NCBI GenBank assembly: GCA_964494105.1 | Contig: CAZBQI010000001.1 | Coordinates: 3,126-67,125 of the forward strand | Direction: 5' to 3' | DNA: 64,000 nt | Source of the DNA: an uncultured Candidatus Saccharibacteria bacterium | GTDB lineage: Bacteria > Patescibacteriota > Saccharimonadia > CAZBQI01 | Shown: positions 4,509-26,408 of the stretch, one piece after another | Layout of the letters: each line of letters opens with the position of its first letter | Numbering within the stretch: the stretch's first letter is position 1 | Program-made: the position numbers and the translations under genes | Notes under the pieces: generated by a model | Seen by the model: the letters and a program-made list of their open reading frames with translations, nothing else | The model's database searches: none | What the model was told of the DNA's origin: nothing

Positions 4509-5996
4509 CTAATAGACTTCGTAATTGATTTGAACAAGCGAGGAGTCGATACCAGAATCCTTTAGATAGGCGAGGGCCTCTTCGCGATAACGATTAATAA
4601 GTTCATCATAAGATGCGCCATTATTTTGGGCCGAGTAGTCTATTCCCTGAACCGGTCTCGGGGCGAATGTCTTAATAGTAACAAGAGGCTTGTTACTAGC
4701 TATTGTATAAGTAATTTCATAATGGTCTTCGGTTCTTGGTAGTGCCTTATTAAGCTTATCTATCAAATTGGCGTTCCCGGTCTTTGTGAACATTATTCTA
4801 AATAGCCCACCATTGTTTGACGGTGAAGATGTTCCGAAATATATCTGGTTCTGTGTGCAAGCAATGCTGGTGAGATCGTTTTGCTTGGTCAATAAGTTAG
4901 TAGATCTATTTTCGAGGTTATAAAGCCAAAGCCCAAGAGTATCGCCAAAAGTCACCTTGTTTTCATCACACCAGCTAATAGGAAGTGTCTTGATTTGTTT
5001 TTTCTCGATTGTTCCAACAACGGCCTTCTTTTCGGTGTCATATATTTTGATGACACTATCGAGTGCGTAGGCCAGAAGTTTACGACTTGGCGACCAGGCA
5101 GCAGCCACTACAATTCTGCCCTCATCCAGTACTCGCTTTTCTTTACTATTAATATCAAGAATGGTCAGTCCGCCACCTTGATACTCTTCAAAATTTACCT
5201 CGTTTAGTTTTGCTTTTTCATTGTCGGTATGTGGGTAGCCCGAAGGGATGCTAAATACCGCCACCTTGCGCTCGCCATCATAGGCAATATTTGAATCGGC
5301 ATCTTTCGTAGAAAATACTTTTCTAGCTACCAATTCACCCTGTTGTTTTACAAAAACATCCTTACCTGTGCTGACGGCGAAACTGCTGGAGTCCACTCCG
5401 AGTGCGATTTTTGATGTACTGGTTAGTTTTGTAAAGACGGTGTTGGTTATCTCTTGCTTGTTGTTATTTACAATTTCGTATAGCTTGCCCTGGTTGGTGA
5501 TAGCTATGCCGTACTGATTATTTGCTTGAAGGTCGTTTATCCCAAAAAGATCAGTTAAATATGGCTGGGTTATACCACTTGCACCGTCGTATTTATTGGC
5601 AATTTGGGTTGTTGGGACCACAAAAATAACATCATTATTTTGGACAGAAACGTTTCTTGCCGGCTGGTCGGATAAGTCTTCGACTGGTTTCTGTGGTTCG
5701 GGCTTTAAAGCAACTTTGGTGGCGCTCCTTGGGTTAATACTGACTACCATTGTGCTGGTGTTGCCGTTATAGTCGGCAAATACGGCGTATTGCCCGCGAT
5801 TTAGTCGACGTTTTAGTTCGCTAGATTTTTTCTTGGCTAGCTCTTGGCCGGCTTCGTTTTCGATGCGTAGCGTATAGTTATCGTCGGGAGCGGTGATAAT
5901 TACTGTGCCACTATGCCACCAGCGCCAGCCAACAAATATAATACCGACTACAATTAAGGCAACGGCACAGATTTGTAATATACGTTTGATATTCAT
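4509..5996 (-). CDS. Membrane-anchored (N-terminal TM) beta-rich surface protein, possibly TolB/PD40-like propeller; hypothetical
   Basis: 495 aa; N-terminal hydrophobic anchor ILQICAVALIVVGIIFVGW then beta-strand-rich Ser/Thr/Asn-rich sequence (WSPSRKLLAYALDS); first gene of the minus-strand T4SS-like block. Confidence 0.5.
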   Translation of the reverse strand: MNIKRILQICAVALIVVGIIFVGWRWWHSGTVIITAPDDNYTLRIENEAGQELAKKKSSELKRRLNRGQYAVFADYNGNTSTMVVSINPRSATKVALKPEPQKPVEDLSDQPARNVSVQNNDVIFVVPTTQIANKYDGASGITQPYLTDLFGINDLQANNQYGIAITNQGKLYEIVNNNKQEITNTVFTKLTSTSKIALGVDSSSFAVSTGKDVFVKQQGELVARKVFSTKDADSNIAYDGERKVAVFSIPSGYPHTDNEKAKLNEVNFEEYQGGGLTILDINSKEKRVLDEGRIVVAAAWSPSRKLLAYALDSVIKIYDTEKKAVVGTIEKKQIKTLPISWCDENKVTFGDTLGLWLYNLENRSTNLLTKQNDLTSIACTQNQIYFGTSSPSNNGGLFRIMFTKTGNANLIDKLNKALPRTEDHYEITYTIASNKPLVTIKTFAPRPVQGIDYSAQNNGASYDELINRYREEALAYLKDSGIDSSLVQINYEVY

Positions 5997-5999
5997 CTT

Positions 6000-7985
6000 T
6001 TAAAGACTACTCCCTCGCCCGCCGTCAGGGAAATCATCACAAAGTGTTGGTTCCCCAACACCGTCCGGCACAACCACGCCATTCGTTAGTGGGTTAACAG
6101 TACCATTGGCACTGCCCTGGACGCCACCTTGCTTCTGGACGTTAAAATGCAAGTGTGCGCCGGTGCTTCGACCAGTATTACCTGATTTGGCAATTTCTTG
6201 GCCCTTGGTAACAGTATCGCCTTCGGCAACCAAGATTTCGCTCAAGTGTCCGTAGAGTGTCCAAAAGCCATTGCCATGATTAATAACAATGGCGTTGCCA
6301 TACCCGCTAGTTAAGCTCCCGCTAATACCGGCAAATTCTACCGTGCCGGCATCAGCCGCAAAAACTTTACTACCAACGGGAACACCGATATCAAGCCCGG
6401 AGTGTCTGCCGTAACTCCGTACATCCCCCCAGCAGGCAGTGAGGGTTCCTGCTGGCTCGACTGGCCACTGGAACTGGCCACTGGCGGTGGCGCCGGGGCA
6501 GCCATTTGTATTACCCGCTGCCGGCGTGGTAGCGCCACCGGTACTAGGCGCTACGCCCGGATTACCTACTACTCCACCGTACAGCCAGTAGCCCCGCAGT
6601 ACGGTATTTACATACTCACTAGAGTGGTTATAGTGCCAAATGGCGTTCGAAATACTGTGGGCTTGCGCGCCACCGTTTGGATCGCCCAAGGGGGCACCAA
6701 TAATTCCGCCATTTGCCGCCAAATAATTAGCTGCGCCATACGCCGCGTCGGTTAAATTTTGAATATCAGCCACGCCATTCTCATCGCCGTCTACACCATA
6801 AGCTCTCCAGGTATCATTTAAGAACTGAAACGGTCCATTTGCCCCCTTGTCGGAACTTGCCCAAGGGCCTTCATGGTTAGGCCAGCCGGCACCATTTCCA
6901 CCGCCATGCTCGCCGTAGTGGAAAATTCCCGCAATCAACGCCGGCTCGACATTGAACCGCGCCCCGGCGGCGGTAAAAATACTATTATATGGCTCCGGTA
7001 CGCCATTTGGGCCGGTAGGCAGGGTGCCGGGAGGTAGCCCAGACCCGAGTGCGCTACAGGTACAACCATCCGCGGCGTCATTAGCGGCGGCATCACTTGG
7101 GTCGCTACCGCTACTGCCGGTAACCTCGGTAGCAATAAGTTCGGCGAGTGATACGGCGCCGGCGCTTGTGTTATGAATAAAATCGCCCTCTAGATAATCG
7201 TTGGTATCAGCCGGTGGGCTGGTGTTGGTACGCAGACTTACGTTGGTTGGGCCGGGAATGTTTTTCGGGTCACTGGATGCGCCAAAGTTATTTTTGTACT
7301 CACTAATCACGCTGTAGCCCAGGCTCCCCGCCTCGTCATAAATTACTCGGTTGCGTCGGGAGTATTCACCCGGGTTGGCAGTTGCGCCAACATCAACGTA
7401 GTAGTAATTGGCATCGGGGTTTAAATCTTTCAAGTCACCAACAAAGCTTCGCAGTCTGGTAGTAAAGTTGCTTTCTACTGTGGGTGGGTTCGTGCCCAAT
7501 TCAATAATAATGGCATCGGCTTGCCGGATGGCTTCGGCATCGGCCGTTAGAGCATCATCAATTGTTTGGGCGGGGGGTGCCCCAGGAAAATTAGCACCAC
7601 CCGAAGTGTACGATCTGCCCGGTACAGCGTTACGAGTTAGTTGCCAGTTATTGTTGCGAAACTTATCTTCGATAGTGCCTTTGGTTTGAAGATGGTAACC
7701 CTTGGAGTCACCAATTAAATAGGCTTTTTTAGTTTGCGCGTCGTCAACACTCGGGCCCTGTTGGGCATCGGCAATTTGCTCGGCACAAGCACCGTTATAG
7801 TGCTGGGTGTTGTGCAGGATGGCATGGATGTTAAGGTCGGTTATGGCCGACACCGACTGCAATGGCACCAGCCAAGTGCTAACTAGTGTCAGCATAAATA
7901 CGCCGATTACGAATTTATGTACGTGATTTATGGGTAAGGCTTGCGGACGAGAAAACAAGCCGATCATTTCTTTACCAGCTTCCAT
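6000..7985 (-). CDS. Secreted multi-domain peptidoglycan hydrolase: N-terminal SGNH/GDSL-like esterase, central lysozyme-like lytic transglycosylase, C-terminal M23 (LytM) endopeptidase; VirB1-like cell-wall opener for the adjacent T4SS
   Basis: 661 aa; signal/TM FVIGVFMLTLVSTWLVPLQSVSA; GDSL-like block YLIGDSKGY plus IIIELGTN; transglycosylase-like GPFQFLNDTWRAYGVDGDENG..DAAYGAANYL; M23 HSGLDIGVPVGSKVFAADAGTV..GYGNAIVINHGNGFWTLYGHL..TGRSTGAHLHF. Confidence 0.75.
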   Translation of the reverse strand: MEAGKEMIGLFSRPQALPINHVHKFVIGVFMLTLVSTWLVPLQSVSAITDLNIHAILHNTQHYNGACAEQIADAQQGPSVDDAQTKKAYLIGDSKGYHLQTKGTIEDKFRNNNWQLTRNAVPGRSYTSGGANFPGAPPAQTIDDALTADAEAIRQADAIIIELGTNPPTVESNFTTRLRSFVGDLKDLNPDANYYYVDVGATANPGEYSRRNRVIYDEAGSLGYSVISEYKNNFGASSDPKNIPGPTNVSLRTNTSPPADTNDYLEGDFIHNTSAGAVSLAELIATEVTGSSGSDPSDAAANDAADGCTCSALGSGLPPGTLPTGPNGVPEPYNSIFTAAGARFNVEPALIAGIFHYGEHGGGNGAGWPNHEGPWASSDKGANGPFQFLNDTWRAYGVDGDENGVADIQNLTDAAYGAANYLAANGGIIGAPLGDPNGGAQAHSISNAIWHYNHSSEYVNTVLRGYWLYGGVVGNPGVAPSTGGATTPAAGNTNGCPGATASGQFQWPVEPAGTLTACWGDVRSYGRHSGLDIGVPVGSKVFAADAGTVEFAGISGSLTSGYGNAIVINHGNGFWTLYGHLSEILVAEGDTVTKGQEIAKSGNTGRSTGAHLHFNVQKQGGVQGSANGTVNPLTNGVVVPDGVGEPTLCDDFPDGGRGSSL

Positions 7986-8959
7986 AGCTTATTTTCAAAA
8001 CCGGCCACTAAATCGGCCTTTGGCGTGTTGGAGATGTTGGTGGGTATGGGTTTATCGGCCAGCACGCCGTACTCGGTTGTAGTGTTGGTTTTTAAATCAA
8101 GAATTTGGTATTTTACATCGACCCCATTTGCACGAGCTATCTGCAGGATATCTCCATGTAGAGCAAAATTGGTCTGTTCTTCACTATCGATTTGGTTTTG
8201 GGCCGAATCAACCACAACCATTTTTCCGTTAGCATCGACTACCAATAGTTTGTCGTTTTCTCTTAGCAATAATGACTTCTTTTGACTATCTACGTTATAG
8301 ACTTCAACGCCCGCCATTTCTTTTACAGTGTTGCCCGCGGTATTAATAATTCGCAGGTTGCCAACTAGTGACTCGACCTCGTTGTAAGACATTAACCCAA
8401 TGTTTTCACCAATGGCGTAGACCTCTTCGATGTTTGTGCCAGTATAAGAATGTAATACTTGGCCGTCGATTGATTCAACCGTGATGGTACTGGTGCCATC
8501 AGGACTGGTTTTTAAAATAATTACACTACCGTCATTACGCCAGACTGCTTGGCTACCGGTGAATGAACGAAGTTGTTGTTTTGAGCCGACATCGAAAATT
8601 ACACCCAAATTCTCTCGCACTATGCTAAAGTGCTTAGAATCTTGACTGATATCTAAGGCGCCCTCGCCGTACGCACCTAAGTTGGTTTTGCTTTGCCCGT
8701 CATAAATAACCCACTCTTGCAGTTTGCTTTTATAGACTATCCCTCTGGCATAACTAATTAAGCGACGGCTTTGACTATGATTAAGATTGCTATCTTTGTT
8801 TTCTGGCGGGATGTAGGTGTTATCGACAAATTCCGCTTTTAGGGTGCCACGCTCCTCGGGTTTATTCGAGGGTCTAACGAAAATTGCCCAGGCTGTACCA
8901 AAGAGAATTAGAATTGCGACTAAAATTACGATAATTCGCTTGCGACTACTAGTTTCCAT
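7964..8959 (-). CDS. Membrane-anchored hypothetical protein (start taken at internal METSSRKR; the 9163 start of the ORF track would overlap the upstream gene by 215 nt)
   Basis: Basic stretch then TM (RKRIIVILVAILILFGTAWAIF) followed by ~300 aa beta-rich ectodomain; ATG at 8959 overlaps the stop of the 1061-aa gene by ~11 nt. Confidence 0.5.
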   Translation of the reverse strand: METSSRKRIIVILVAILILFGTAWAIFVRPSNKPEERGTLKAEFVDNTYIPPENKDSNLNHSQSRRLISYARGIVYKSKLQEWVIYDGQSKTNLGAYGEGALDISQDSKHFSIVRENLGVIFDVGSKQQLRSFTGSQAVWRNDGSVIILKTSPDGTSTITVESIDGQVLHSYTGTNIEEVYAIGENIGLMSYNEVESLVGNLRIINTAGNTVKEMAGVEVYNVDSQKKSLLLRENDKLLVVDANGKMVVVDSAQNQIDSEEQTNFALHGDILQIARANGVDVKYQILDLKTNTTTEYGVLADKPIPTNISNTPKADLVAGFENKLWKLVKK

Positions 8960-11900
8960 TGATCGACCAGTGCCAAGGTTCGCTCGGCAAGTTTTGAAAT
9001 CCATAATTTGTGGAGTTGGCTGCCAGCCATTGGTAGCAGGCAGTAGAGCGGTACCGGCAGTTATTAAAATCAATCGCCACTCCCCAGCCGTGATTTGATC
9101 TACCAACGGGCGCAGTTGGTACTCGACACTGGCTGGAAGATGTCCAGTTAGGCGGGCAACCATTGGCTTGGCCGGCGCGGAGCTGACCGGCCAGGTCGCG
9201 GAAGCCGCTACCGCTGAGGATTACACCAGCGTCTTCGGCGTCGCTGATCATATTCTGCACACACTGAGCAACGTCTTGGCGGACACCACGGTTGATGACA
9301 GCGTTGTTCCCTCGGCTGATAATTGGCTCAACTATCGGTATTCCGGGTGCGTTTCCGTCGGCGGGTACCGGCGCTGGCAAAGCCGGGCTTCCTGGTTGGG
9401 GCGAACAGCTAGTGGTAAAGGCCGGGCCTCCGCCTATGTTACCAACGGCAGCGCCCACGGCAGCGCCAGTGCCCAGCCCGCTGTCATCCTCTTCGTTTTG
9501 GAGCGACGTCGATTCCCGTAGTATGAATTCGTCTTTTTTATACAAAACAAAACGCTGGCCTATCACACTTTTTTGTAAGCTATCGCCCCCATCACCAAAA
9601 CAGTCAGCGTATTCAGAACTGTTAAACCGCACAATCATGCGTGCGGTGCTGTCTTTGAAGCACTTGCCATATTTTGCCTCGAGCGCATCGTACTGTGGTT
9701 CTACAATTTTTGCGTTTTCTCGGGGGCACCATGATTCATCGTCGATGCATTTATCAAATAAGTTCAACGGCACGCCGAATTGCTTAATGCCATAGGGGCC
9801 TTCACCCGAGGCCGCCCAAATTGGCTGGCTACGTTCGCTGTACGAGATAACTTTTTCGTGGACGAAATTCATAGGGCTAATGTTGGCAAGTGCGGTTGTG
9901 GCGAAAGTTCTGACTTCGCTTAGGCTGGTTGGCACGCGGATGACAAACTGGGCTGCCAGCGAGCGAATATTACCGGTGTCAAATATACGGGCGTACCAAC
10001 TGCGCGTGCTGTCTTTTTCGTACTGGATACGGTTAAGTTCGGCTGAGTATTCGTTAATCTGATCAGGCGTTAAGACCATGGCACCGGATTGCTTGTCCAT
10101 TTCTAGGCCAATTATCTCAGTCCCGGCACCGGCCTTGTTAAAGCCGGCCGACGCTTCTTCTTGCGAAGCGTTATCGGAGCCCGAGTAGGCCTCGACCATT
10201 CTGGGCATCAGCCAGTCGGTCATTAAGATTTGAACTGTTAGTGCTCCACCTGACTTAACGACTGTTGTTCCGAGCACCTTAATTGCTAGCTTCATTGTTT
10301 GCCATACGCCCTGAGCTACAACTTCCGACGTACTTAAACTCCATATTGCTAATAGAAATTCTACGAGACTAGTTATGGCCTGACCAATATAGCTTAGAAT
10401 GGCTCTACAGGTAGCCTCAAAAGCAAAGTCAGCTTTTGGACCAAGAGCATTCCAAGAAGTTTCGAGTATGTTCTTGATAGCTTCAGGTGATTCACCCATA
10501 GCTTTCTGAGGGTATAGTTCCTCGGGCATGTCGTACTTTTCGCCTTTCGAGGCCATCCCCAGGCCACTCCGATATTCGGTGGAATACTCAAAGTCGCCCA
10601 ATGAATCTACGCAGGCCTGGACTGCTTTCGAGGTAACATCCCCTTCTTTTTGCTGATCGGCACAATTAAATATGCTGTAGGAAAACCGGGCATAGTTTTC
10701 ACTGCGCTTTTCAATGACTTTCTCGATGTTATAGACGTAAGCGTCATATAATAAGCATATTGTAACTGCTACTGCATTCAGCACGCTAAGACCTCTCAAA
10801 ATGGCAAATGCAGGCCTAGCCTTAAATGATTCGATGATTCGCTCTAATATCCTGGTTCGCTGGGGGACGGCTGCTTCGCCGGCCGCATCAGCTGCTTCAT
10901 CCGTAAAATCACCGTTCTTTATGCGGTCTTGGTTCCTTTTTGTTTCGTCGTCAACCTCTTGGCTAAGGCTAACAACTCGATCAGGATCGCGTATGGCTAG
11001 GTCTTGACGTTTTTGATCGATATTTAGTGCTTCGACGCGGTTTTTTCCTTTAAATATTCTGCCTAAATCGTCAAACCGAATTAGTCGTAGTTTTAGTTGA
11101 CGTCGTATATCGAGCAGTAGTTTTCCGCGCCAGATTTTATTTCTCATGGCGTTGATAGATAATATTTCCTCCTCGAGTTCCTTAACAGCGGCCATTTTTT
11201 GCGCTCGAGTTGCATTCTCTGGTAATAAGTACTCGCGACCGGTGGTTAAGTTGCGATAACCACGAAAGTCATTGGTCAAGCGTAAGTTCCACTTGCGCCG
11301 GCTTTTCATAACTAGTTCTATGCCATCAGCTCGCCCAAGGCGCGTCAGTGCCGATTGCGGGTTATAGCCGACCAACAAATCTGTTACGCCCCCGCGCCGG
11401 ATAGGGTTTAGCCGACCGGTGCTTTCGGCCGACACCAAGCCCTCGCTGGCAACGAGCTGACCAACCCGCCTAGCTAGCTGTAGGTTAAAGCGAGCCAGGT
11501 GAACGTCAATCAAATATTGTTTAACGTGCTCGGGTTTGTAAAGGAACGCGAAAAAGAACAGCAATACCCCCATACCGGCGACCACACCCAGCACACCCCA
11601 CACACTAAAGCCCAGCAATTTGCGAACAAACATTTTTCGAGCTGTTTTTCGGACCGGGTGTTTTTTGTGCTTACTTTTTTCGTGATAGTAAGATTCGCTT
11701 GCATCATCGAAGAATTCTTTGGCCGATTCGCCTAGCAACCTGCCGGTTGCTTGTGAACCAACCGACTTAATCAATTTTTCTTTTAGCTTATTTCCGGCCT
11801 CTTTATCGGCGACGTCATCTTTGTTTTGATGGCTGGTAGCCAGCTGGTCGAACTGGGCAATTTCGCCTGGTTGCAGTGGCACGGTTGGCTTGTCGACCTG

Positions 11901-15977: not shown

Positions 15978-16173
15978 AACATAAGTATTATGTATCAAGT
16001 GTCAAGTATCAAGCGGATTGGTTCGGACTTGGGCCAATTAAAAATTAGATTATATGGAATCTCTAAACTTGTTACTACCGTCTACAAACTACCATTTGGT
16101 GGGTTGCTTTGATTCACAACCGGGCCGGCATCGTCCTAAATATGGGTTTTTTGGTACAGACCGCTTATGGTTA

Positions 16174-16680
16174 TCAAGTTGATGATGCTGTCTGGCTGTT
16201 TGGCCGAGCGGCTGATGGGGTTTTTTGGTAAACGCCGGCAATGGATGATTGCTCGATAATGTGCCCTTGCATAGCAGCGAGCAGATCCTTTTTGCTTACG
16301 TTCGGATTGTCACTAAACAGCGTATCTAGGGCGTAGAGGGTGAATCTATACAAGTGCGCACCATTTGGCGGGCAAGGCCCGGTGTAAGCATTTTCGCCGG
16401 CGCTGTTTTTGCCCTGTATGCATCCTGGGGGCACTATGCCTTCCTCGATTAGCGTTGTATCTGGGGGGATGTTAAACAACACCCAATGGTCGTACACTTC
16501 GCCGTTACCGGCTGGGTCGGTGGCGGCATCGGGGTCTTCAACAATCAGCGCAAAGCTTTTGGTGTTTGCGGGCGGATTAAAAATCCGCAAATTGGGATTA
16601 ATATTCCGGCCTTGGCAGGTATAGGTCGAGGGAATATGTACAGACAATGTAAAATCTGGTGAAAATAAATTTAAGGCCAA
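16174..16680 (-). CDS. YbhB/YbcL family phosphatidylethanolamine-binding protein (PEBP/Raf kinase inhibitor-like)
   Basis: 168 aa; DPDAATDPAGNGEVYDHWVLFNIP and HLYRFTLYALD motifs characteristic of bacterial PEBP family. Confidence 0.8.
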   Translation of the reverse strand: MALNLFSPDFTLSVHIPSTYTCQGRNINPNLRIFNPPANTKSFALIVEDPDAATDPAGNGEVYDHWVLFNIPPDTTLIEEGIVPPGCIQGKNSAGENAYTGPCPPNGAHLYRFTLYALDTLFSDNPNVSKKDLLAAMQGHIIEQSSIAGVYQKTPSAARPNSQTASST

Positions 16681-16769
16681 TTACGCTCCGTTATTTAGTG
16701 CTTTGCACCTATGATTTTACCATAAGCGTTGTGGTTCTGACTGCTCATAGGGCGCTATCTTGGCTCGAT

Positions 16770-18500: not shown

Positions 18501-18832
18501 AATTTATCCTGATGGTACTATAGCATAAGCTTGATAAAATTACAAGCACAGTATATTAACTACTAAATTTAACCACTAGTATGCTATTTGGGTACGAGTT
18601 CCGGGTTTGCAGGCACTTCTCTGAAGTTAAATTTTAGTCCGGCGTAGTCGACTGCATAGAAGCCGTCGCTTGTTTTGTATACAAATTCTCTGTATTTATA
18701 ATTAGTTATAAGCTCTTGAGCCATTAGGCCGATATATTGAGTATTCGGTTTGTTTTTATAAGAGAATCTTTATATGTAAATATCGTCATCAAATTTCCCG
18801 ACTTTCGTGTGCACATTTTTAAGCCGTCTGTC

Positions 18833-20611
18833 TTAACGAATAGGAGCAACTGGCGGAATAGGTGGTGCGGGTGGTGGTGGGCCAACTGGTGGTGCGGGTG
18901 GTGCTGGAGCTGGGCCAGGTGGCGGTGGCGGGAGTGGTCCGGGCGGTGGCGGTCCGGCCGCGCCTGGTTGTTCTTTTGATATTCTTGTTGCCGTCGATAC
19001 GCCATCGGCGGTAGATGGCGCGTAGCCAGATCGCTTTAGCCCTACGGTATCTGTATCGAGTGCCCCACTGCCACGCAGTGTTGTTTCTAGCGCTATATTG
19101 GTTTGAGCGCTGTGGTAGTTACCCCACGTAGTTGCCATATCATTTAGTCGGCCTAAGCGAATAGCATCACCGCTAGCTTGAGCATCTTGGATTTCAGGTG
19201 CCAGAAATTGTGGCATCAAATCACCGGTAGACGTTTTGGCTCGCTGGATGTCGCCGGTGGTTAGCTGTGTCATGTCGCGCCTAAATTTATCTGCCCCCTC
19301 CGGCTCGGTCCAGTTATGGATAGTGCCGGTATTATCCATTGTGGTACCCAAAGAGGCTTCAAATTGCCCTTGCCCCTTGGCTGCTTCTTGAACTGTGCGA
19401 AAAACACTGGCTCGGGCACTGCGGTCTTCGATATCGTTAAGTCCATGAACGGCATCGGCGCTAATTCTGCCCTGTGAAGCTACTGCGATAGCCGCGGCGG
19501 ATGTTCGGCCCTCGCGGGTCATCTTTACAGAGTGAGCCAAGTTAAGCTGGTCTAGGGCAACTTGTTGATCGTGTGGGTCTAAGTGTTGAGCTCGCACGTA
19601 GGCTTCGGCTGCGTCAATATCACCATGGCTAGCAGTGATTGCATTCAACGCGTGATGATTATTAATTCCAGCTTCGTTCAGTTCTTTTGCCCCATGAAGC
19701 GAGTGTTGCAGATGGGCGGCACTACGCTTAGCCCTACCTTTATCAGTAACTCCAAATCGGCCAGTGCCAATTTGGCCCATTCGGTTCATGAATCGACCAC
19801 GACGGGTATCGGTGTTAAATCTTGTGCCGTGCCGGCTTTCGGCAGCTTGGTTCTTGGTAGTGTCCCAAGCCCATTTTTGTGCCGGAGCAGCCATTTTTTT
19901 GCCGGCGTTAGTGACGGCACTACTAATGCCGTTTATTAATGAGCCGGCAAAGCGGAAAGTAAATGGAATAGCAACCAGAGGTGCTACTAAACAGCCAAGA
20001 GCGATTACGGCAAGGATTATTTCTTCAAATGTGCCGGAACTGCCACTGCCCACTTGGGTAACAACCGAAACCGAAACAATCGCCGATACCACATAAAGCG
20101 CATTGATAATTGGGAACATCAGTAAAATCCGCAGGAGTACACTAAACCATTGCTTGGCGTATTTTTCGGTATTGGGCAGTACCCACAAAAGCATCGCAAT
20201 TGGCGACACAATTACCAGGGCAATGATAATAACCTGCCGAATCACCAGGGTTATTAGCACCGAAAATATCATTGGTAAAATCATCAGCGCTAGTGCCAGT
20301 GCGAGCGCCGGAAACAGCGCTACGGCTGCAATACCGCCAAGTAACACCGACAATGCACCACCAATGCCGGCGATCGAACCTGCATCAATACCATCAATAT
20401 TTAGTGCATCAACAATTGCTCTGGCTATATCGGCCGGGCTACTGCCATTGGTGCTAACACCCGGTACAACGGCAAAAAGCCCACGAATTCCCTGTCCCGC
20501 GACGTTGGTGAAGTCGATCATGAATTGACATAAATAGATAGAAAGCTGAATAGCAATCACGGCAATTATTAGCCGAGGGAGCATTTTCTTTATGGCATAA
20601 GCGTCTAACAT
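18833..20611 (-). CDS. Polytopic membrane protein, VirB6/TrbL-like T4SS channel component candidate, with poly-proline C-terminal tail
   Basis: 592 aa; at least 6 predicted TM helices in the first 250 aa (LIIAVIAIQLSIYLCQF, AVALFPALALALALMILPMIFSVLITLVI, IIIALVIVSPIAMLLWVL, ILLMFPIINALYVVSAIVSV, ILAVIALGCLVAPLVAIPF); C-terminus GPPPPGPLPPPPPGPAPAPPAPPVGPPPPAPPIPP. Confidence 0.5.
   Translation of the reverse strand: MLDAYAIKKMLPRLIIAVIAIQLSIYLCQFMIDFTNVAGQGIRGLFAVVPGVSTNGSSPADIARAIVDALNIDGIDAGSIAGIGGALSVLLGGIAAVALFPALALALALMILPMIFSVLITLVIRQVIIIALVIVSPIAMLLWVLPNTEKYAKQWFSVLLRILLMFPIINALYVVSAIVSVSVVTQVGSGSSGTFEEIILAVIALGCLVAPLVAIPFTFRFAGSLINGISSAVTNAGKKMAAPAQKWAWDTTKNQAAESRHGTRFNTDTRRGRFMNRMGQIGTGRFGVTDKGRAKRSAAHLQHSLHGAKELNEAGINNHHALNAITASHGDIDAAEAYVRAQHLDPHDQQVALDQLNLAHSVKMTREGRTSAAAIAVASQGRISADAVHGLNDIEDRSARASVFRTVQEAAKGQGQFEASLGTTMDNTGTIHNWTEPEGADKFRRDMTQLTTGDIQRAKTSTGDLMPQFLAPEIQDAQASGDAIRLGRLNDMATTWGNYHSAQTNIALETTLRGSGALDTDTVGLKRSGYAPSTADGVSTATRISKEQPGAAGPPPPGPLPPPPPGPAPAPPAPPVGPPPPAPPIPPVAPIR
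18846..18965. repeat. GC-rich GGTGGYG-type low-complexity repeat encoding the poly-Pro tail (source of spurious overlapping ORFs 18724-19005/18737-18979)
   Basis: ggtggtgcgggtggtggtgg...ggtggcggtggcggg read directly. Confidence 0.7.
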
Positions 20612-20699
20612 ATTTCACCTTTGGTGGAATATAAAGCATCAACAAACAAACCCCAATATTCAAACAAATTCCAATTTCGAAATTTCAAGTCCACAAACA

Positions 20700-21107
20700 T
20701 CATTGGCTTTTTACTACGATTGCGTTAAATATTTTTACTAATTCTATAGCTTCTCGTTGCAGAACAGTCACCGTAGATTCTAACTCCCTTGGTGTGTCCA
20801 AAAGCCTTAGCCAATAACCGCTTTCTTTTGCTTCTTTTCTAGATATTTTTACTCGCATTACAAAGTCTTTCTTGCTAAGCGATTCATTTGCCTCTATATT
20901 ATTTGCGCCAACAGACCCAGATGAACGTACAAGCTGTTTGCAATCTTCAATATTTGCAGTTGTTTTTGAGAGTTTTTTTACAAGCGCACGGCAATCTTGT
21001 GCAAAACTGAATGTTCTTTCTTCTAAATCATATTGTTTACTATTTTGAACATTGGAGTTTAAGACTTGTTTGCTATTTGGAGTTTGAGTTTTGGAATTTG
21101 TGATCAT
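20700..21107 (-). CDS. Four-helix-bundle protein (TIGR02436-like; the family often encoded within 23S rRNA intervening sequences)
   Basis: 135 aa; SFAQDCRALVKKL..SSGSVGANNIEANES..KDFVMRVKISRKEAKESGYWLRLL matches the conserved core of this family. Confidence 0.65.
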   Translation of the reverse strand: MITNSKTQTPNSKQVLNSNVQNSKQYDLEERTFSFAQDCRALVKKLSKTTANIEDCKQLVRSSGSVGANNIEANESLSKKDFVMRVKISRKEAKESGYWLRLLDTPRELESTVTVLQREAIELVKIFNAIVVKSQ

Positions 21108-21109
21108 CT

Positions 21110-22339
21110 TTAGCTCTTGCCTCCGGTAGCCTGGGAATAAATGATAATTATAAATACCAGTACCAGCCCGACATTAGCCAGGTCGCGGAAACCTTTCCAA
21201 CTACGGTAAGCCGGATTACCCTGCTGAACTACCTTGGGGTCGGTAAGCAGTAAGTCTTCGATAACGGTACCGGTTTTGTCGAGGGCATCACGGACGAGCC
21301 GAATGGTCCCACAAATTATCCACGTTAAGCCCGATTCGGCATCGCAGTTTTCATCGTCGTCGCGTCCACCACCACCGCCACCACCATCTGCGCCAGTGCC
21401 ACTCCCGACGCCGTCACTTGAAGTGTCGCCAGGGCTATCTTCTGCTGCGATTACAGTATCGTATTCATTGCCTCCACCAATATCACTGACTTTAAAAGTT
21501 TGCTTTCCATTAATTGCTGTCATATCTGTTTTCTTAGCAGCGCGGCTCCCATCTTGGACTTTTAAAAATTGGTCACCGCCACAATCGTCCCGAATATAAC
21601 GGCCATCAGACCCGCTGTCTGAACACCAAACAAAGTCTTCTGTTCCACCTAGAAGCGATATAGCCGTATCTATACCTTCATTGTAGGCATAGGAAATATT
21701 GAAATTATCAAGCGCGCTTTGGTCAAGCAAGCCTGCGACACTTACCTTGCTCACATCGGGCGTATCAGTGCCCTGTTCCTCCCATTTGCTAAATCGTGGG
21801 CCTGAATCGGTAAAAATTACTCTGGTAGAAGCATCAATATCTTGCCAAAAACTATCATTGACCTCGATGGCTACTTCAATGTCGCGCATTCTATCGATAA
21901 TTGTTGCGGCAACGATGCGCTTGTCGTAATAATTGTTATTATTAAAGTCTATATCTTCATTTAAAGCATCGGCAAACTCATTAATGCGGCTCTCGCGATT
22001 GTCACCTTCTATGTCATATTGAATATTAATTTCTTGCCCATCCCAGTCAGAATCTATATACTCCCCGGCGAAAATGTCTTCAAATGTTTTTTCTTGCCCG
22101 CCATCGGTAAAGGCCGGGTTATCACTGCCGGCGTCAAAATTAAGCTTTAAGTGCGAGCGGTTAATGAATTTGATTTTACCCCTTTCAAACCAACTGGCAG
22201 GTCCATGTCTGCTTGTTAGCGGAACAGGTTTTATGTCTTCTGCATTAGCGGCACGCACTGACGCATAGGGCGCAAATAGGCTAGCAACAGCGAATACCAA
22301 TAGTATTAATGAAAACAGCAAGTTTTTGGTTCTAGTCAT
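21110..22339 (-). CDS. Secreted acidic/Gly-rich protein with N-terminal signal peptide and C-terminal hydrophobic anchor; hypothetical surface protein
   Basis: 409 aa; LLFSLILLVFAVASLFAPYASVRA signal; poly-Gly GSGTGADGGGGGGGRDDDE; C-terminal VGLVLVFIIIIY. Confidence 0.55.
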   Translation of the reverse strand: MTRTKNLLFSLILLVFAVASLFAPYASVRAANAEDIKPVPLTSRHGPASWFERGKIKFINRSHLKLNFDAGSDNPAFTDGGQEKTFEDIFAGEYIDSDWDGQEINIQYDIEGDNRESRINEFADALNEDIDFNNNNYYDKRIVAATIIDRMRDIEVAIEVNDSFWQDIDASTRVIFTDSGPRFSKWEEQGTDTPDVSKVSVAGLLDQSALDNFNISYAYNEGIDTAISLLGGTEDFVWCSDSGSDGRYIRDDCGGDQFLKVQDGSRAAKKTDMTAINGKQTFKVSDIGGGNEYDTVIAAEDSPGDTSSDGVGSGTGADGGGGGGGRDDDENCDAESGLTWIICGTIRLVRDALDKTGTVIEDLLLTDPKVVQQGNPAYRSWKGFRDLANVGLVLVFIIIIYSQATGGKS

Positions 22340-22444
22340 TTTGCTTTTGCTTTTGCCTCACCCATTTAACTCTACGAGCCTAATTTTATACTATTTTGCT
22401 TTACAAGTATAAGTGGGAATTGTGATATTTTTCAGATGTTACTA

Positions 22445-23239
22445 TTAAGCAGAAAAATCGTCACTTGGGTCTTGATGTGTTTCGGTATAAATCGTCGTGC
22501 CGGTTTCTTCGTCGAGCCTCAGGGTTGTAATTGATATCACCGGCCCATCAGTTGCAAGGATATCGCCATAAAAACCACTTGCGCTCAGGCTTCCTGGCGT
22601 AGCTGTTCGTCGCACTAAGTGTGAGCTATAAAGTGCTCGCACCATAAGCTCACCGGGGTTTCCTGGCAAAACAGCAAAATCATCATTTGGGCCATCAACA
22701 TTATCTGGGTCATCTTTGCCGTCAAGCAAGAATTCCGGGCGGACAAAGAATGGGTACGTCGCAGCAAATTCTACATGTGTCGGGTTTAAATCAGCTACAG
22801 ATACGCCAAAAACCGCCGCTAACAATTCGGGGCTACGCAAGTTAATGGCAGCGTAATGATTATTTATGGCTGCCATCGCAGCTTGAACCGGGTCTGAGGT
22901 GTCTACCTCTGAAAGTGTAACTGGATAATCTGTTTCGCGGAGCAAAGCTTTCTCGTTTTCGGATAAAGTGCTGGATGCTATAGCTACTTCCCTGGCTTCT
23001 GGTGTCGCTTCTACCCGGCTAGACACTAATGGTTCAAGTGGTGCACTCTCTTCGCTATCTTGGCTTCTCTCAAACAGAGTGTATCCACCCAAAGCGGCGC
23101 CACCAATACCAATTAATGCGCCGGTTGTGCCAAGCCCAATAAGAAAGTGTCGCCGTGTCATATCTGGTGCCGTGGGTTCGGTACCATCAAAACGATGTGG
23201 GCCAATGTCGGGGGCGCCAGGTGTTGTTGCGATAGCCAT
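22445..23239 (-). CDS. Tat-signal (twin-arginine) exported hypothetical protein
   Basis: 264 aa; MTRRHFLIGLGTTGALIGIGGAALG matches the S/T-RRxFLK Tat motif followed by a hydrophobic h-region. Confidence 0.55.
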   Translation of the reverse strand: MAIATTPGAPDIGPHRFDGTEPTAPDMTRRHFLIGLGTTGALIGIGGAALGGYTLFERSQDSEESAPLEPLVSSRVEATPEAREVAIASSTLSENEKALLRETDYPVTLSEVDTSDPVQAAMAAINNHYAAINLRSPELLAAVFGVSVADLNPTHVEFAATYPFFVRPEFLLDGKDDPDNVDGPNDDFAVLPGNPGELMVRALYSSHLVRRTATPGSLSASGFYGDILATDGPVISITTLRLDEETGTTIYTETHQDPSDDFSA

Positions 23240-23344: not shown

Positions 23345-23767
23345 ATGCTTAAAACCACAAATCAAAAATCTTTCATTTTTGCGCTCATCGGTCTAGCCAT
23401 TGTTAGCTGTTTTTTGCTGGCCACGTTAGTTAGTTCTTCTTTTGTCGTGGCTGCGCCCACACCGACCCCCGTCGGGGGTTCAGCTAGTGGTTGCACCGAG
23501 TTGGCGATTGATGTGGGTGCGGCAGCTTGTGGGAAAAATCGACTGATGAAATATATAACCGCTTTGGTGCGGTTTCTTTCGCTGGGGGTTGGAATAATCG
23601 TAGTGATTATGATTATTGTGGGTGGCATTCAATACACTAGCTCTGGCGGTGATGCTGGGGCGGTAGCAGCAGCCAAGAGCAGGATATTTAATGCTATTTT
23701 GGCACTGCTGTTGTATATTTTTACCATTGCCATATTAAACTGGCTGGTCCCAGGGGGAATAGTTTAA
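23345..23767 (+). CDS. VirB2/TrbC-like T4SS pilin paralog 1 (signal peptide, Cys pair, C-terminal 2-TM hairpin)
   Basis: 140 aa; CTELAIDVGAAAC; C-terminal GVGIIVVIMIIVGGIQYTSSGGDAGAVAAAKSRIFNAILALLLYIFTIAI = two hydrophobic helices around a GG loop. Confidence 0.55.
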   Translation: MLKTTNQKSFIFALIGLAIVSCFLLATLVSSSFVVAAPTPTPVGGSASGCTELAIDVGAAACGKNRLMKYITALVRFLSLGVGIIVVIMIIVGGIQYTSSGGDAGAVAAAKSRIFNAILALLLYIFTIAILNWLVPGGIV

Positions 23768-23835: not shown

Positions 23836-24603
23836 ATGAAAACAGCTCAAAAAATCTATCTCTTATTAGTGATAAGTGCTTTTACATTTGGCATGAGTTT
23901 TGTTTCTAGTTTTATCTCTAGCCCGCCTGTAAAAGCTGCTTCGGAGCTACAATTTCACTTCTTTTGTCGTAGTGGCGCCGCAGTAGTCAAAGAAACAGTC
24001 AGTGGTGGCACAGCAATAAAATGTGAAGACGGCTCTGCTCTTGGTAGGCACATTGGTGATGACGAGGAAAATATATTCACCACTTTTAATGTCGAATGCG
24101 CCAGAGGTACACCCAATTTAGATTCGGTTTCTAATATATTTAGCTGTGATGGTGGCGGGGGTGCTGAACCACAGGTAACAAAAGTAGATGATGATAGTGC
24201 AGGCCAGCCACCACCTGGCTCTGGAGGTGGCTCTGGTGGAGGTGGTTCTGGCGGCGGATCTGGAGGCGGTGGTACCAGTGGCGTTTGTGGTAGTGGCGAC
24301 ATGTTATTTGGAATAATTCCAACTTGGTACAAGTACCTGGAGTTTTCACCCGATTGCACAGTAATAATAAGCAAGATAGATGACTTTTTAAAAATCGGCG
24401 GGGCGGTAATTGAAATTGTGCTACGTCTGGGGGCAATAGCGGCTATCGGGTTCATCATCTTTGGTGGTTTTCGCTTTGTTACTAGCATGGGCGACCCCGA
24501 AGGCATCAAAAACGCGCGGAATACCATCATTAATGCTGTAATTGGTTTGGCTTTAATGATTCTTTCTACCACTATCGTTAGCTTTATAGCGGGGAGGCTG
24601 TAA
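23836..24603 (+). CDS. VirB2/TrbC-like pilin paralog 2 with long variable region and Gly/Ser linker
   Basis: 255 aa; signal peptide; GSGGGSGGGGSGGGSGGGGTSG linker; C-terminal AIAAIGFIIFGGFRFVTSMGDPEGIKNARNTIINAVIGLALMIL. Confidence 0.55.
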   Translation: MKTAQKIYLLLVISAFTFGMSFVSSFISSPPVKAASELQFHFFCRSGAAVVKETVSGGTAIKCEDGSALGRHIGDDEENIFTTFNVECARGTPNLDSVSNIFSCDGGGGAEPQVTKVDDDSAGQPPPGSGGGSGGGGSGGGSGGGGTSGVCGSGDMLFGIIPTWYKYLEFSPDCTVIISKIDDFLKIGGAVIEIVLRLGAIAAIGFIIFGGFRFVTSMGDPEGIKNARNTIINAVIGLALMILSTTIVSFIAGRL

Positions 24604-24890
24604 TGTTTGAAAACACAATTTTTTATACGCTTGCCCAGCTAAGGGGTGCGCATGGGTTGCCGAACCCCGACACATCTAACGTGCTCGAGACCGTGCTTAA
24701 GACTTCTTTTGTAATAATTGGGGCGCTCGCAGTGATATTTGTAATTATTGGCGGGTTTCAATACGTTCTGTCGGGTGGCAATCCGAATAATACCAGTCGG
24801 GCCAAAGAGACAATTATCTATGCCATTGTGGGTTTGGTGGTTTCGCTTCTGGCATTTAGCATAGTAGACTTTGTGGTAGGAAAAGTATGA
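24603..24890 (+). CDS. VirB2/TrbC-like pilin paralog 3 (short form)
   Basis: 95 aa; FVIIGALAVIFVIIGGFQYVLSGGNPNNTSRAKETIIYAIVGLVVSLLAF; start overlaps the preceding stop (ATGA...). Confidence 0.55.
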   Translation: MFENTIFYTLAQLRGAHGLPNPDTSNVLETVLKTSFVIIGALAVIFVIIGGFQYVLSGGNPNNTSRAKETIIYAIVGLVVSLLAFSIVDFVVGKV

Positions 24891-25261
24891 AAAAAGCAGT
24901 GATAGCCTTATTCGTTCTAGTGATTGCCGGTGCGCTTTCGCTGGGTTCTGTATGGGCCGACACCAAAACCGAGGTTTGCGAAGGGCTTAAGCAAGGTAGT
25001 CCGAGCGTACAGTGCGATCCGGATAGCTCCGATAAGATTATTGTTGATACAATTGATAAGGTTTTAGGGGTGTTGTCGTTTGCAATTGGGGCGCTCTCGG
25101 TATTGATGATAATCTTTGGTGGGTTTCGCTACGTTGTCTCGGGTGGTGACAGCTCGGGGGTAGAAGGCGCGAAAAATACCATATTGTACGCCATTGTTGG
25201 TTTAGTTATTGCCTTTTTGGCGCGGCCGATAATCGTTTTCGTGATTGGGTGGTTTGTTTAA
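24887..25261 (+). CDS. VirB2/TrbC-like pilin paralog 4
   Basis: 124 aa; signal peptide; CEGLKQGSPSVQC; LSVLMIIFGGFRYVVSGGDSSGVEGAKNTILYAIVGLVIAFL. Confidence 0.6.
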   Translation: MKKAVIALFVLVIAGALSLGSVWADTKTEVCEGLKQGSPSVQCDPDSSDKIIVDTIDKVLGVLSFAIGALSVLMIIFGGFRYVVSGGDSSGVEGAKNTILYAIVGLVIAFLARPIIVFVIGWFV

Positions 25262-25843
25262 ATGAAGTTACTTACTGCTGTTTGTTGCCTGATGTTTTTT
25301 GGTTTATTCGTGATGAGTATGCCGGTATTTGCCCAGGACAGAAAAATAACCCCTCGACCAGGTGCTACAACTCCTGCACCTGAGGCAACTCCGGGCGTAC
25401 CCGAAGCAACCCCACCAGCAAGTGGTGGCGGAGGTTCAGGTAGCGGTAGCGGAAGCGGAAGTGGCGGAGGCAGTACTAATCCCTTTGCTGCCGAAATTTG
25501 CGAAGGCGCCAAGAATGGCGCCGGCAGTGATTGTTCCGGCTCGTCTTTTCTAAAAGGCCTAAAGAATATTGCCAATATTATCTTGTTTCTAATTGGGGCG
25601 GTAGCGGTAATAATGATAATTATCGGCGGGTTTCGCTATGTTGTCTCGGGTGGTGACAGCTCGGGGGTGGAAGGCGCGAAAAACACCATATTGTACGCTG
25701 TGATTGGCCTAATAGTGGCGGCGCTTTCTTTTGCGATTGTAAATTTCGTTATAACATCAATTTCCGGTTCCGGTAGTGGCGGGGGGACCGGGAGTACACC
25801 GGGTAGCTCAAGCGGACCACCCGGGGGGTCCAGTGGACCATAA
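25262..25843 (+). CDS. VirB2/TrbC-like pilin paralog 5 with Gly/Ser linkers on both sides of the pilin core
   Basis: 193 aa; signal peptide; SGGGGSGSGSGSGSGGGS; CEGAKNGAGSDC; VAVIMIIIGGFRYVVSGGDSSGVEGAKNTILYAVIGLIVAAL; C-terminal SGSGSGGGTGSTPGSSSGPPGGSSGP. Confidence 0.6.
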   Translation: MKLLTAVCCLMFFGLFVMSMPVFAQDRKITPRPGATTPAPEATPGVPEATPPASGGGGSGSGSGSGSGGGSTNPFAAEICEGAKNGAGSDCSGSSFLKGLKNIANIILFLIGAVAVIMIIIGGFRYVVSGGDSSGVEGAKNTILYAVIGLIVAALSFAIVNFVITSISGSGSGGGTGSTPGSSSGPPGGSSGP

Positions 25844-25847
25844 GGTG

Positions 25848-25901: not shown

Positions 25902-26333
25902 GTGAAAGCCCTAAAAAATAAAATCTCGAAATTGCTTACTATAACCGCCAGCGCCGGTATTTTCTTTATGTTGTTATTCGCCCCGGTGTTTGCACAGGAT
26001 GTAGCATGCGATCCAACAACCGGCTCTAGCGGCCTGCAGAACGGCGCCAACTGTGCTCAAGCGTCGGGTACCTCAGATCAATTGTTCGGTGAAGACGGTC
26101 TGTTTAAGAAGGTCAGTAATATCTTGGTCTTCTTGGTGGGTGCGGTATCGGTTATCATGCTGATTATCGGTGGTTTTCGCTATGTGGTCTCGGGTGGCGA
26201 CAGCTCAGGGGTGGAAAGCGCGAAAAACACCATCCTCTATGCCATCGTTGGTATTGTGGTGGCGTTTCTGTCATATGCCGCCGTCAACTTCGTTATCGGT
26301 GGACTTTCTAATACTACCGGCGCTGGCGGTTAA
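25902..26333 (+). CDS. VirB2/TrbC-like pilin paralog 6 (GTG start)
   Basis: 143 aa; signal peptide; CDPTTGSSGLQNGANC; VSVIMLIIGGFRYVVSGGDSSGVESAKNTILYAIVGIVVAFL. Confidence 0.6.
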   Translation: MKALKNKISKLLTITASAGIFFMLLFAPVFAQDVACDPTTGSSGLQNGANCAQASGTSDQLFGEDGLFKKVSNILVFLVGAVSVIMLIIGGFRYVVSGGDSSGVESAKNTILYAIVGIVVAFLSYAAVNFVIGGLSNTTGAGG

Positions 26334-26375
26334 GCAAACCTTTTGACTCGCGTCCATCGCTTGAACGCTATTATA

Positions 26376-26408
26376 TAAAAAAACCCCGCCAAATTTGGCG
26401 GGGTTTTT
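26376..26408. terminator. Bidirectional rho-independent terminator between the pilin array (+) and hsp20 (-)
   Basis: aaaaaaccccgccaaatttggcggggttttt: 7-bp GC stem flanked by A-tract and T-tract. Confidence 0.8.

Follow-up and report, generated by a model that had tools for sequence, protein, structure and literature searches.

A large block of secretion genes beside the replication origin raises the question of whether a mobile element has settled there or whether the genes are a fixed part of the chromosome. Such a block occurs in the window analyzed here, a stretch of 64,000 nucleotides (64 kb) from an uncultured Candidatus Saccharibacteria bacterium (assembly GCA_964494105.1, contig CAZBQI010000001.1, positions 3,126 to 67,125). 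The original prediction had described it as a 22-kb type IV secretion system (T4SS) or pilus island of Gram-positive type, standing in the place of gyrB. With a probability of roughly 0.85, the block is an origin-proximal chromosomal T4SS that is a core feature of Saccharimonadia and the ortholog of SEML1_0004-0019 of Candidatus Southlakia epibionticum (S. epibionticum). What this study established is which parts are present, how they are ordered and conserved across species, that they adjoin the origin, and that the catalytic motifs are intact. The finding is correct but already known, since the locus has been described by Wang et al. (2023, Cell, PMC10633639) and Quinonero-Coronel et al. (2025, Microb Genom, PMC12102498). 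It had been mapped, surveyed, and tested by transposon sequencing (Tn-seq), and the window is one more, uncultured, instance.

The main gene calls of the original prediction were recovered at the same coordinates by open reading frame (ORF) listing and profile searches (Table 1). The scan of the window covered every ORF of at least 280 aa and most ORFs of at least 200 aa. The VirB4-family ATPase exceeded the curated cut-off of the NCBIfam family conju_CD1110 (375.5 bits compared to 325; E value, 5.2e-112). It also matched the Pfam families P-loop_TraG (3.4e-28), AAA_10, and DUF87, and its Walker A (KSGAGKS) and Walker B (LIVDEAW) motifs are intact in translation. No fewer than 8,000 homologs (at least) were detected; the best 120 were 64 to 81% identical, and the named ones among them belonged to Ca. 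Saccharimonadales or Saccharibacteria. This protein is the sole FtsK/HerA-type ATPase of the window. A Pro/Ala/Gln/Ser-rich, low-complexity extension of ∼110 aa (12131-12460) was noted at its C terminus, whereas most orthologs, at ∼625 to 640 aa, are without one.

The alignment to conju_CD1110 starts only at profile position 179, so the usual N-terminal domain of VirB4 is missing and appears to be supplied by the separate TrsD-like gene. The 305-aa product of that gene scored 35.9 bits against NCBIfam TrsD, under the curated cut-off of 200. It also weakly matched the N-terminal positions of two VirB4 profiles (VirB4_plasma, 92 to 280; VirB4_CagE, 19 to 201), and orthologs carry precomputed matches to PF26593 TraC-like. 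The predicted PrgI/VirB3-like protein was confirmed by the Pfam family PrgI (54.5 bits compared to a cut-off of 27). Its two transmembrane (TM) segments span residues 33 to 51 and 54 to 72, and its true start is probably the Met at residue 8.

For comparison, 80 species-level loci containing relatives of VirB4 were searched with tblastn, phmmer, and jackhmmer; labels such as L001, L082, and L085 denote individual related loci. A recurrent gene order (ComF-HSP20-pilins-VirB6-PrgI-TrsD-VirB4-giant-hydrolase-recF-dnaN-dnaA) was found in dozens of Saccharimonadia species. A TrsD-like gene adjoined virB4 in 78 of the 80 loci, PrgI was present in 71, and a VirB6-like gene was present in 60. Pilins were located upstream in 33 of 50 loci. 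Among the 52 species-level loci with enough flanking sequence, 45 had dnaN no more than 9 kb from virB4, and dnaA was antiparallel to virB4 in all 43 related loci in which the two were compared. The T4SS core operon (4509-23239, 18.7 kb) is transcribed toward the origin, head-on to replication, and this was the case in all loci examined. The dnaA-dnaN-recF-dciA flank was likewise found in relatives, and the HSP20 and ComF neighbors on the far side recur both in related loci and, as SEML1_0020 and SEML1_0021, in S. epibionticum.

The placement directly after dnaA-dnaN-recF-DciA was confirmed by Pfam, and no gyrB was present among the window ORFs scanned. Three perfect TTATCCACA sites and one site with a single mismatch all lie within the DnaA-box cluster given in Table 1, and three further boxes with one mismatch lie between dnaA and dnaN (1707-1890). 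Because the perfect boxes of the 64-kb window are confined to that cluster, the locus begins ∼4 kb from the likely oriC; its start is 29 nt past dciA and 4.2 kb from the cluster.

These results bear on the possibility that the block is an integrated conjugative element (ICE) that inserted beside the origin and moves DNA between cells. The VirB4 family is one typical of Gram-positive ICEs (conju_CD1110), and PrgI and TrsD are conjugation-type parts. However, dozens of species whose VirB4 proteins are 65 to 80% identical have the locus at the corresponding chromosomal site, and neither a relaxase, a type IV coupling protein (T4CP), an integrase, nor flanking direct repeats were found in the 64-kb window. 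The tRNA genes near the locus sit outside the conserved HSP20 and ComF neighbors. The GC content is not distinct either: windowed values were 0.42 to 0.53 in the block and 0.41 to 0.48 in the rest of the window, with no marked compositional break. Pilin arrays are also foreign to Gram-positive ICEs (PMC12102498). An ICE was thus rejected, largely by synteny and further by the missing relaxase, T4CP, integrase, and repeats, and we give it next to no weight. Nor is the block an island: its position is conserved across the class, and an integrase, flanking repeats, and a marked GC break are all lacking.

The reported absence of a relaxase, a VirD4 coupling protein, and VirB11 held for all scanned ORFs of the window, and no Pfam or NCBIfam match to VirB5, VirB7, VirB9, VirB10, or VirB11 was obtained in the locus or the window. 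The remaining scanned ORFs were housekeeping genes or had no match. Three genes within the block are not T4SS genes; they encode a PEBP-family protein, a 23S_rRNA_IVP protein, and a 576-aa protein with a degenerate PP2C-like domain.

The closest published counterpart is the T4SS cluster of S. epibionticum, which lies right after dnaA-dnaN-recF and in which nearly all members are essential by Tn-seq; S. epibionticum is the only organism for which a requirement for epibiotic growth has been shown in this way (PMC10633639). Its members comprise VirB4 with a neighbor of ∼300 aa, PrgI, VirB6-like proteins, a multi-domain lysozyme/peptidase, and a TAT-signal NTF2-like protein, with six pilins and then HSP20 and ComF, and Wang et al. 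point out the pilins and the absent relaxase and coupling protein (PMC10633639). In the comparison of synteny proposed along with the original prediction, Saccharibacteria T4SS loci showed the same order as the window, including SEML1_0004-0021 almost gene for gene. The SEML1_0004-0019 cluster of strain ML1 has the same dnaA-dnaN-recF and HSP20-ComF flanks and the same strand layout as the window, and with the flanks the gene-for-gene match covers SEML1_0001-0021. Both contain VirB4, a TrsD-like protein of ∼300 aa, PrgI, a VirB6-like protein, a giant of ∼1,100 aa (1,061 aa in the window and 1,113 aa in S. epibionticum) that ends in a DD-peptidase domain, a multi-domain hydrolase, and a TAT-signal protein. 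Small anchored or exported beta-rich proteins adjoin recF in both.

Several parts differ between the two. The window hydrolase combines SGNH-like, SLT, and M23 domains, in contrast to two lysozyme-like domains and a cysteine peptidase. The window has one VirB6, split by an inserted cassette, compared with two large VirB6-like proteins (998 and 1,088 aa), and a 495-aa propeller with a 331-aa anchored protein where S. epibionticum has prealbumin-like and PEGA proteins. The PEBP gene, the degenerate PP2C-like gene, and the VirB4 tail are found in the window but not in S. epibionticum.

A survey of thousands of Patescibacteria genomes describes MPF_FATA ancestry, TrsD, PrgI, VirB6, arrays of 2 to 11 VirB2 genes, proximity to dnaA and dnaN, and no relaxases near virB4 (PMC12102498). 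The window is a further instance of this clade and resembles it in these hallmarks, with VirB6 supported through its orthologs. The order of pilin classes and the split of VirB6 described below do not appear in the consulted sections of that survey. A non-conjugative machine for host interaction is the published reading of such loci (PMC10633639 and PMC12102498). A 2025 review counts the system as a new member of the T4SS superfamily and notes that no T4SS before it had been shown to be essential to the bacterium carrying it (PMC12857230), and a 2024 perspective called the role of the Patescibacteria T4SS completely unknown (PMC11665869).

That the system is of Gram-positive (MPF_FATA-like) type with VirB2-like pilins, as originally predicted, was borne out by the profile searches. 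It resembles the conjugative systems of Enterococcus faecalis (pCF10 Prg/Pcf) and Clostridioides difficile (CTn2/CD1110) in the VirB4 match to CD1110 and in having no outer-membrane core parts. It also keeps what we take to be the core order of pCF10, VirB6 (PrgH)-VirB3 (PrgI)-VirB4 (PrgJ)-wall hydrolase (PrgK). In contrast to those systems, the locus in the window has neither a relaxase, a T4CP, nor a recognized PrgB-type adhesin; a VirB8-like protein comparable to PrgL could not be demonstrated; the N-terminal domain of VirB4 is a separate TrsD-like gene; and VirB2-like pilins, which Gram-positive systems lack, are present. The locus is also chromosomal and vertically kept, unlike mobile MPF_FATA elements. 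It is very probable that monoderm conjugation machinery (MPF_FATA, CD1110/pCF10-like) was the ancestor, with the link to a relaxase and coupling protein lost and an array of VirB2-like pilins gained.

Two large proteins of the locus are wall hydrolases, for which four enzymatic domains had been predicted. Pfam detected three of them. In the 661-aa hydrolase, SLT_2 (3.6e-9) and Peptidase_M23 (3.5e-30) were found, with M23 matches in the PDB down to 1.9e-17; the HxxxD and HxH motifs are present, and the M23 metal-binding motifs are intact. In the giant, VanY (2.3e-10) was found, and the M15 metal-binding motifs are intact. The fourth, SGNH, was not detected by Pfam in the 661-aa protein and is represented only by GDS, GTN, and DxxH motifs; the ortholog in L085 had a weak Lipase_GDSL_2 match in addition to M23.

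The 1,061-aa giant had been proposed as a lineage-specific part, but this proved wrong, as iterative searches found its family in 71 related loci, in 68 of them directly downstream of virB4. Its conservation is centered on residues ∼350 to 900, and the N-terminal region varies among species. The family profile matched only M15B carboxypeptidases in the PDB (8.9e-15), with nothing for the core. The giant is equivalent to SEML1_0007, which is essential. Downstream of virB4, it presumably occupies the slot of a PrgK-type hydrolase in pCF10.

The 495-aa protein, likewise proposed to be lineage-specific, was found by jackhmmer in 35 related loci, always adjoining recF or DciA, and is a conserved accessory protein of the locus, not a lineage-specific one. 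An AlphaFold2 (AF2) model had a mean predicted local distance difference test (pLDDT) score of 57, with values of 65 to 89 over residues 200 to 390. Foldseek matched this model to WD40-type propellers in the PDB (E value, ∼1e-8; TM-score, ∼0.5), and Pfam WD40 matches were weak. These results suggest, with moderate confidence, an anchored beta-propeller of generic WD40-like type.

The same proposal of lineage-specificity stood for two other proteins, the 331-aa and 576-aa proteins, which are narrow-lineage or hyperdivergent; together with a 264-aa protein, they are the only such proteins of the block. The 331-aa protein matched no Pfam or NCBIfam family and had no match in the 80 species-level loci. 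In two close relatives, L084 and L085, the same slot is filled by a 331-aa and a 317-aa protein, respectively, and a 327-aa protein in the equivalent slot of L083 is only 20% identical to it (E value, 7e-4).

The call of six VirB2/TrbC-like pilins was sustained. Five score above the PF18895 T4SS_pilin gathering threshold (2.8e-12 to 4.8e-9); the first is below it (20.9 bits; 3.8e-4) and belongs to a conserved positional class. Weak matches to PF04956 were also obtained, and each pilin has two C-terminal TM helices. Pilin genes 4 to 6 share 72 to 74% nucleotide identity over 179 nt, DNA repeats in the window occur only among the pilin genes, and the Gly/Ser linker of pilin 2 was the sole result of a scan for tandem repeats. 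Of 30 related arrays that contain four or more pilin ORFs, 24 start with class 1, class 2, and a short class 3, in that order, and all but one of the 86 genes at later positions are of the class 4 to 6 type, in one to five copies. The class 3 pilin has ∼95 to 100 aa, and the copy in the window is without an N-terminal hydrophobic signal segment. The six-pilin array of S. epibionticum has the same length pattern, with the third pilin short. The conserved order of classes argues for distinct structural roles rather than interchangeable variants.

The pilins are like those of Gram-negative systems (VirB2/TrbC of the Agrobacterium T-pilus and F/RP4-type systems) in their small size, signal or leader, and two hydrophobic helices, but they belong to a monoderm envelope, with no VirB5, VirB7, VirB9, or VirB10. 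In contrast to the multi-copy VirB2 proteins of Bartonella and Anaplasma, the paralogs in the window fall into conserved, ordered classes and are not recent variants.

The pilins might also indicate a simpler organelle, in which the ATPase, VirB3, and VirB6 do no more than assemble a filament for adhesion to the host, without passage of any substrate. The six pilins, all of which are essential in S. epibionticum (PMC10633639), the conservation of distinct pilin classes across species, and a locus without a coupling protein would be consistent with this. However, adhesion and motility in Saccharibacteria have been credited to type IV pili (PMC10633639, PMC12857230, and PMC11665869), and two large multi-domain hydrolases and an extended VirB6 would seem to exceed what a filament needs. 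Thus, a pilus without transport seems rather unlikely.

The predicted polytopic VirB6/TrbL-like protein was supported through its orthologs, not on its own. The 592-aa protein, which has four TM segments, failed the threshold of Pfam TrbL when searched alone (E value, 0.56). In contrast, 11 of 39 VirB6 orthologs matched PF04610 TrbL, the only family that recurred in more than two orthologs, and the ortholog in L082 has a precomputed match to PF19590 TrbL_3. A PDB profile search with the VirB6 family returned no solved relative. A Pro-rich run of ∼45 residues was observed at the C terminus of the 592-aa protein (18833-18950).

The neighboring 409-aa protein had been listed as a surface protein but is actually the N-terminal part of VirB6. 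Its TM segments span residues 7 to 25 and 383 to 408, and 44 of 49 relatives encode both VirB6 segments within the same ORF. In L082, whose VirB4 is 72% identical to that of the window, a single 1,044-aa ORF spans both pieces: residues 327 to 404 of the 409-aa piece align to L082 6090-6320 by tblastn, 13 nt ahead of the match of residues 2 to 479 of the 592-aa piece (L082 6333-7781), and the alignment of the window pieces to this ortholog reached 4e-48.

In the window, the two pieces are separated by a cassette carrying a 23S_rRNA_IVP (IVP) gene, inserted precisely where VirB6 has the loop that connects TM1 with TM2. A TAA closes the upstream piece and is followed after 2 nt by the ATG of the IVP gene; after the IVP stop come a gap of 88 nt and AAGGTG-N5-ATG. 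With the cassette come a stop codon, an AAGGTG of Shine-Dalgarno-like type, and a new ATG for the downstream piece, so that none of the residues conserved at the junction is lost from the two VirB6 pieces.

The flanks of the cassette pair with each other (duplex z score, −3.0; 1 in 300 shuffles). A general rule that IVP cassettes carry flanking stems was rejected, as three cassettes in relatives did not pair better than shuffles and the whole-region fold had a z score of −0.57. The IVP gene was also considered as the Avd of a diversity-generating retroelement, and this was rejected, as there was no reverse transcriptase and no repeat of the template/variable (TR/VR) type in the window. IVP genes occur elsewhere in the same locus of relatives (L081 7409-7666 and 9215-9559; L082 1502-1882), which suggests mobility outside rRNA. 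In two other relatives, VirB6 is encoded as two adjacent ORFs (L014 5613-8031; L006 4284-7084) that are cut after the TM domain, with no inserted gene. It seems that VirB6 tolerates production in pieces.

The cassette could also mean that the window holds a decaying copy, with the system inactivated in this genome by the split of virB6. In favor of this, the interruption was absent from all 49 related loci that have both segments. However, all other genes are intact and the catalytic motifs are present, the stop, AAGGTG, and ATG of the cassette spare the conserved residues, two-ORF forms of VirB6, cut elsewhere, exist in L014 and L006, and the system is essential in a relative. Decay is therefore considered highly improbable.

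Two further genes are insertions of a narrow lineage. The PEBP and 576-aa genes separate PrgI from VirB6, genes that lie too close together in most relatives to accommodate them, and both are missing from the 80 species-level loci; the PEBP gene recurs at the corresponding position in L084, a close relative. The 576-aa protein matched NCBIfam Stp1_PP2C (3.7e-6) and Pfam PP2C_2 (2.3e-4), both under the cut-offs. Among 1.84 billion representatives, only its own cluster matched over the full length, and the other matches were PP2C domains with 25 to 33% identity. PP2C activity was rejected, as there was no sequence match in the PDB and three of the four metal-binding Asp motifs are replaced. Its tail is strongly enriched in Arg and Lys and runs out into an acidic terminus. 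This Arg-rich tail may resemble T4SS substrate signals.

The slot between the pilins and VirB6 holds a 264-aa orphan. Only the protein itself was found among 5.8 billion proteins, and the match to TAT_signal was weak (0.056). The corresponding slot in S. epibionticum is that of SEML1_0012 (TAT plus NTF2-like), which is non-essential. Proteins in this slot in relatives (L001 4368-5399, L006 3192-4241, L011 4369-5607, and L082 4262-4963) share a common build of a basic N-terminal tail, often with RR, a Gly/Ala-rich TM segment, a linker rich in Ser, Thr, Pro, and Glu, and a domain of 150 to 250 aa. Sequence similarity between species was not detectable in this slot (for the 264-aa protein and that of L082, BLASTP E value, 0.21), which would reflect either extreme divergence or repeated replacement. 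The topology of the 264-aa protein would fit a VirB8-like bitopic protein. A VirB8-like fold was considered for it but could not be demonstrated: the single-sequence AF2 model was unusable (pLDDT, 37), and there were no homologs for an alignment and no PDB sequence match.

The additions of this study to the published locus are modest and include the order of pilin classes and the naturally split VirB6. A tentative joint reading can be offered, which we regard as possible but doubtful: the pilus would be a heteromer of ordered classes, VirB6 would function as two pieces, and the 576-aa protein would be a translocated effector. The heteromer would contain three ancient, non-interchangeable pilin classes and a variable, host-facing fourth, and these would not be antigenic variants. 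The pieces of VirB6 would be translated separately after a 23S_rRNA_IVP cassette resembling an intervening sequence (IVS) entered a protein-coding gene. The effector proposal draws on the Arg-rich C-terminal tail and the place of the gene inside the operon. If this reading is true, the split of VirB6 would show that 23S_rRNA_IVP cassettes move outside rRNA.

A working model for the machine can be proposed by analogy. The TrsD-like protein would provide the VirB4 ATPase in trans with the N-terminal domain that it lacks, and VirB4 would dock on PrgI/VirB3 and the polytopic VirB6-like protein, here in two pieces. Local opening of the peptidoglycan may be the task of the M15B giant together with the SGNH-SLT-M23 enzyme, and VirB4 would pull pilins from the membrane, so that a polymerized tube or pilus might reach the host bacterium. 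Within the wall, the structure may be supported by anchored proteins rich in beta structure, among them the 495-aa propeller. The most likely use of such a machine would be contact-dependent exchange with a host cell, through export of proteins or import of host material, and not conjugation; host-cell contact or uptake, as suggested in the original prediction, is speculative.

A more specific form of import has been raised in the literature (PMC11665869), in which a DNA-uptake machine like Helicobacter ComB or Sulfolobus Ced feeds host nucleotides or DNA to the epibiont. A 2026 preprint reports tubular structures at the Patescibacteria-host interface that may be T4SS pili, together with acquisition of host RNA. 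In our data, comF adjoins the locus in the window and in relatives, and VirB4 has weak similarity to the import ATPases CedB (8.4e-13) and CedD (3.7e-6), far under their cut-offs. However, comF of S. epibionticum (SEML1_0021) is dispensable whereas the T4SS is essential, deletion of comEC ended competence with viability unaffected (PMC12857230), and no uptake-specific DNA-binding or channel component was recognized in the locus. Dedicated DNA uptake therefore appears quite unlikely.

Some observations weigh against a functional, non-conjugative T4SS in this organism. The machine is known here from genes alone, and the working model would be carried over only by homology from the Gram-negative VirB and Gram-positive Prg systems. 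The 592-aa VirB6 piece, as noted, missed the TrbL threshold by itself. No VirB8-like protein (PrgL/TraM, NTF2-like) could be demonstrated in the locus by model or sequence match. The gene inserted into virB6 might impair the machine in this organism. A relaxase or coupling protein may also be encoded elsewhere than in the window; VirD4 homologs are distant from virB4 in many Patescibacteria (PMC12102498).

The surroundings of the locus gave few other features. An Rfam scan of the window found only tRNAs, five in number: four tRNA-Ser genes, with the anticodons tga, gct, cga, and gga, and one tRNA-Arg, within 30 kb. The tRNA-Ser gene at 30638 falls inside a mechanical ORF (29723-30835), the true start of which is probably further downstream because its Pfam match begins at residue 127. 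A scan of the window for promoters and terminators returned little above shuffles. ORFs of 230 to 430 aa at 35677-36561, 60516-61914, and 61976-63262 had no Pfam family at an E value of ≤0.01.

Table 1. Coordinates of the T4SS block and its neighbors in the 64-kb window
Feature	Coordinates	Strand	Basis or remark
DnaA-box cluster (probable oriC), 5' of dnaA	169-266	not assigned	TTATCCACA sites
dnaA	360-1703	+	Pfam Bac_DnaA 7.7e-70
dnaN	1944-3050	+	Pfam DNA_pol3_beta, three matches
recF	3121-4209	+	Pfam SMC_N 3.9e-21
dciA (formerly DUF721)	4202-4480	+	Pfam DciA 2.9e-9
T4SS block	4509-26408	13 minus-strand genes, then six plus-strand pilin genes	ORF listing and profile searches
495-aa protein: N-terminal anchor, probable beta-propeller, C-terminal alpha/beta domain	4509-5996	-	TM residues 6-24
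661-aa secreted cell-wall hydrolase: SGNH-like N-domain, MltB-like lytic transglycosylase, M23 endopeptidase	6000-7985	-	
331-aa membrane-anchored protein, narrow lineage	7964-8959 (mechanical ORF to 9163)	-	TM near N terminus
1,061-aa giant: basic N-terminal region, three hydrophobic segments, central core, C-terminal M15B (VanY/LdcB-like)	8949-12134	-	
VirB4-family ATPase, CD1110/MPF_FATA type	12131-14257	-	NCBIfam and Pfam
TrsD-like 305-aa protein (VirB4 N-terminal domain as its own gene)	14217-15134	-	NCBIfam TrsD 6.4e-9
PrgI/VirB3-like protein, two TM segments	15312-15998	-	Pfam PrgI 1.8e-14
PEBP-family protein, narrow-lineage insertion	16174-16680	-	Pfam PBP 5.3e-38
576-aa protein: degenerate PP2C-like domain (∼30-270), orphan C-terminal half, Arg/Lys-rich tail	16770-18500	-	
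VirB6-like, C-terminal piece, 592 aa: TM2-TM5, cytoplasmic domain, Pro-rich tail	18833-20611	-	
Inserted cassette	20612-21109	-	Carries 23S_rRNA_IVP (four-helix-bundle, PF05635) gene 20700-21107, Pfam 5.5e-12
VirB6-like, N-terminal piece, 409 aa: signal peptide, extracellular domain, TM1	21110-22339	-	TM prediction, orthology
264-aa orphan: Tat-like RR motif, Gly/Ala-rich TM, acidic linker, ∼170-aa domain	22445-23239	-	
Six VirB2-like pilin genes	23345-23767, 23836-24603, 24603-24890, 24887-25261, 25262-25843, 25902-26333	+	
HSP20, far flank	26434-26955	-	Pfam HSP20 8.9e-19
ComF, far flank	27169-27855	+	Pfam DZR_2 and Pribosyltran
tRNA-Ser genes	27882-27971, 30638-30730, 32510-32599, 57958-58049		

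The T4SS of Patescibacteria is a leading candidate for how ultrasmall epibionts exploit their hosts. The window adds no new testability to the question of cargo and direction. Mutants in cultured species could nevertheless be designed with the help of the ordered pilin classes, the conserved central region of the giant, the propeller fold adjacent to recF, and the split VirB6.

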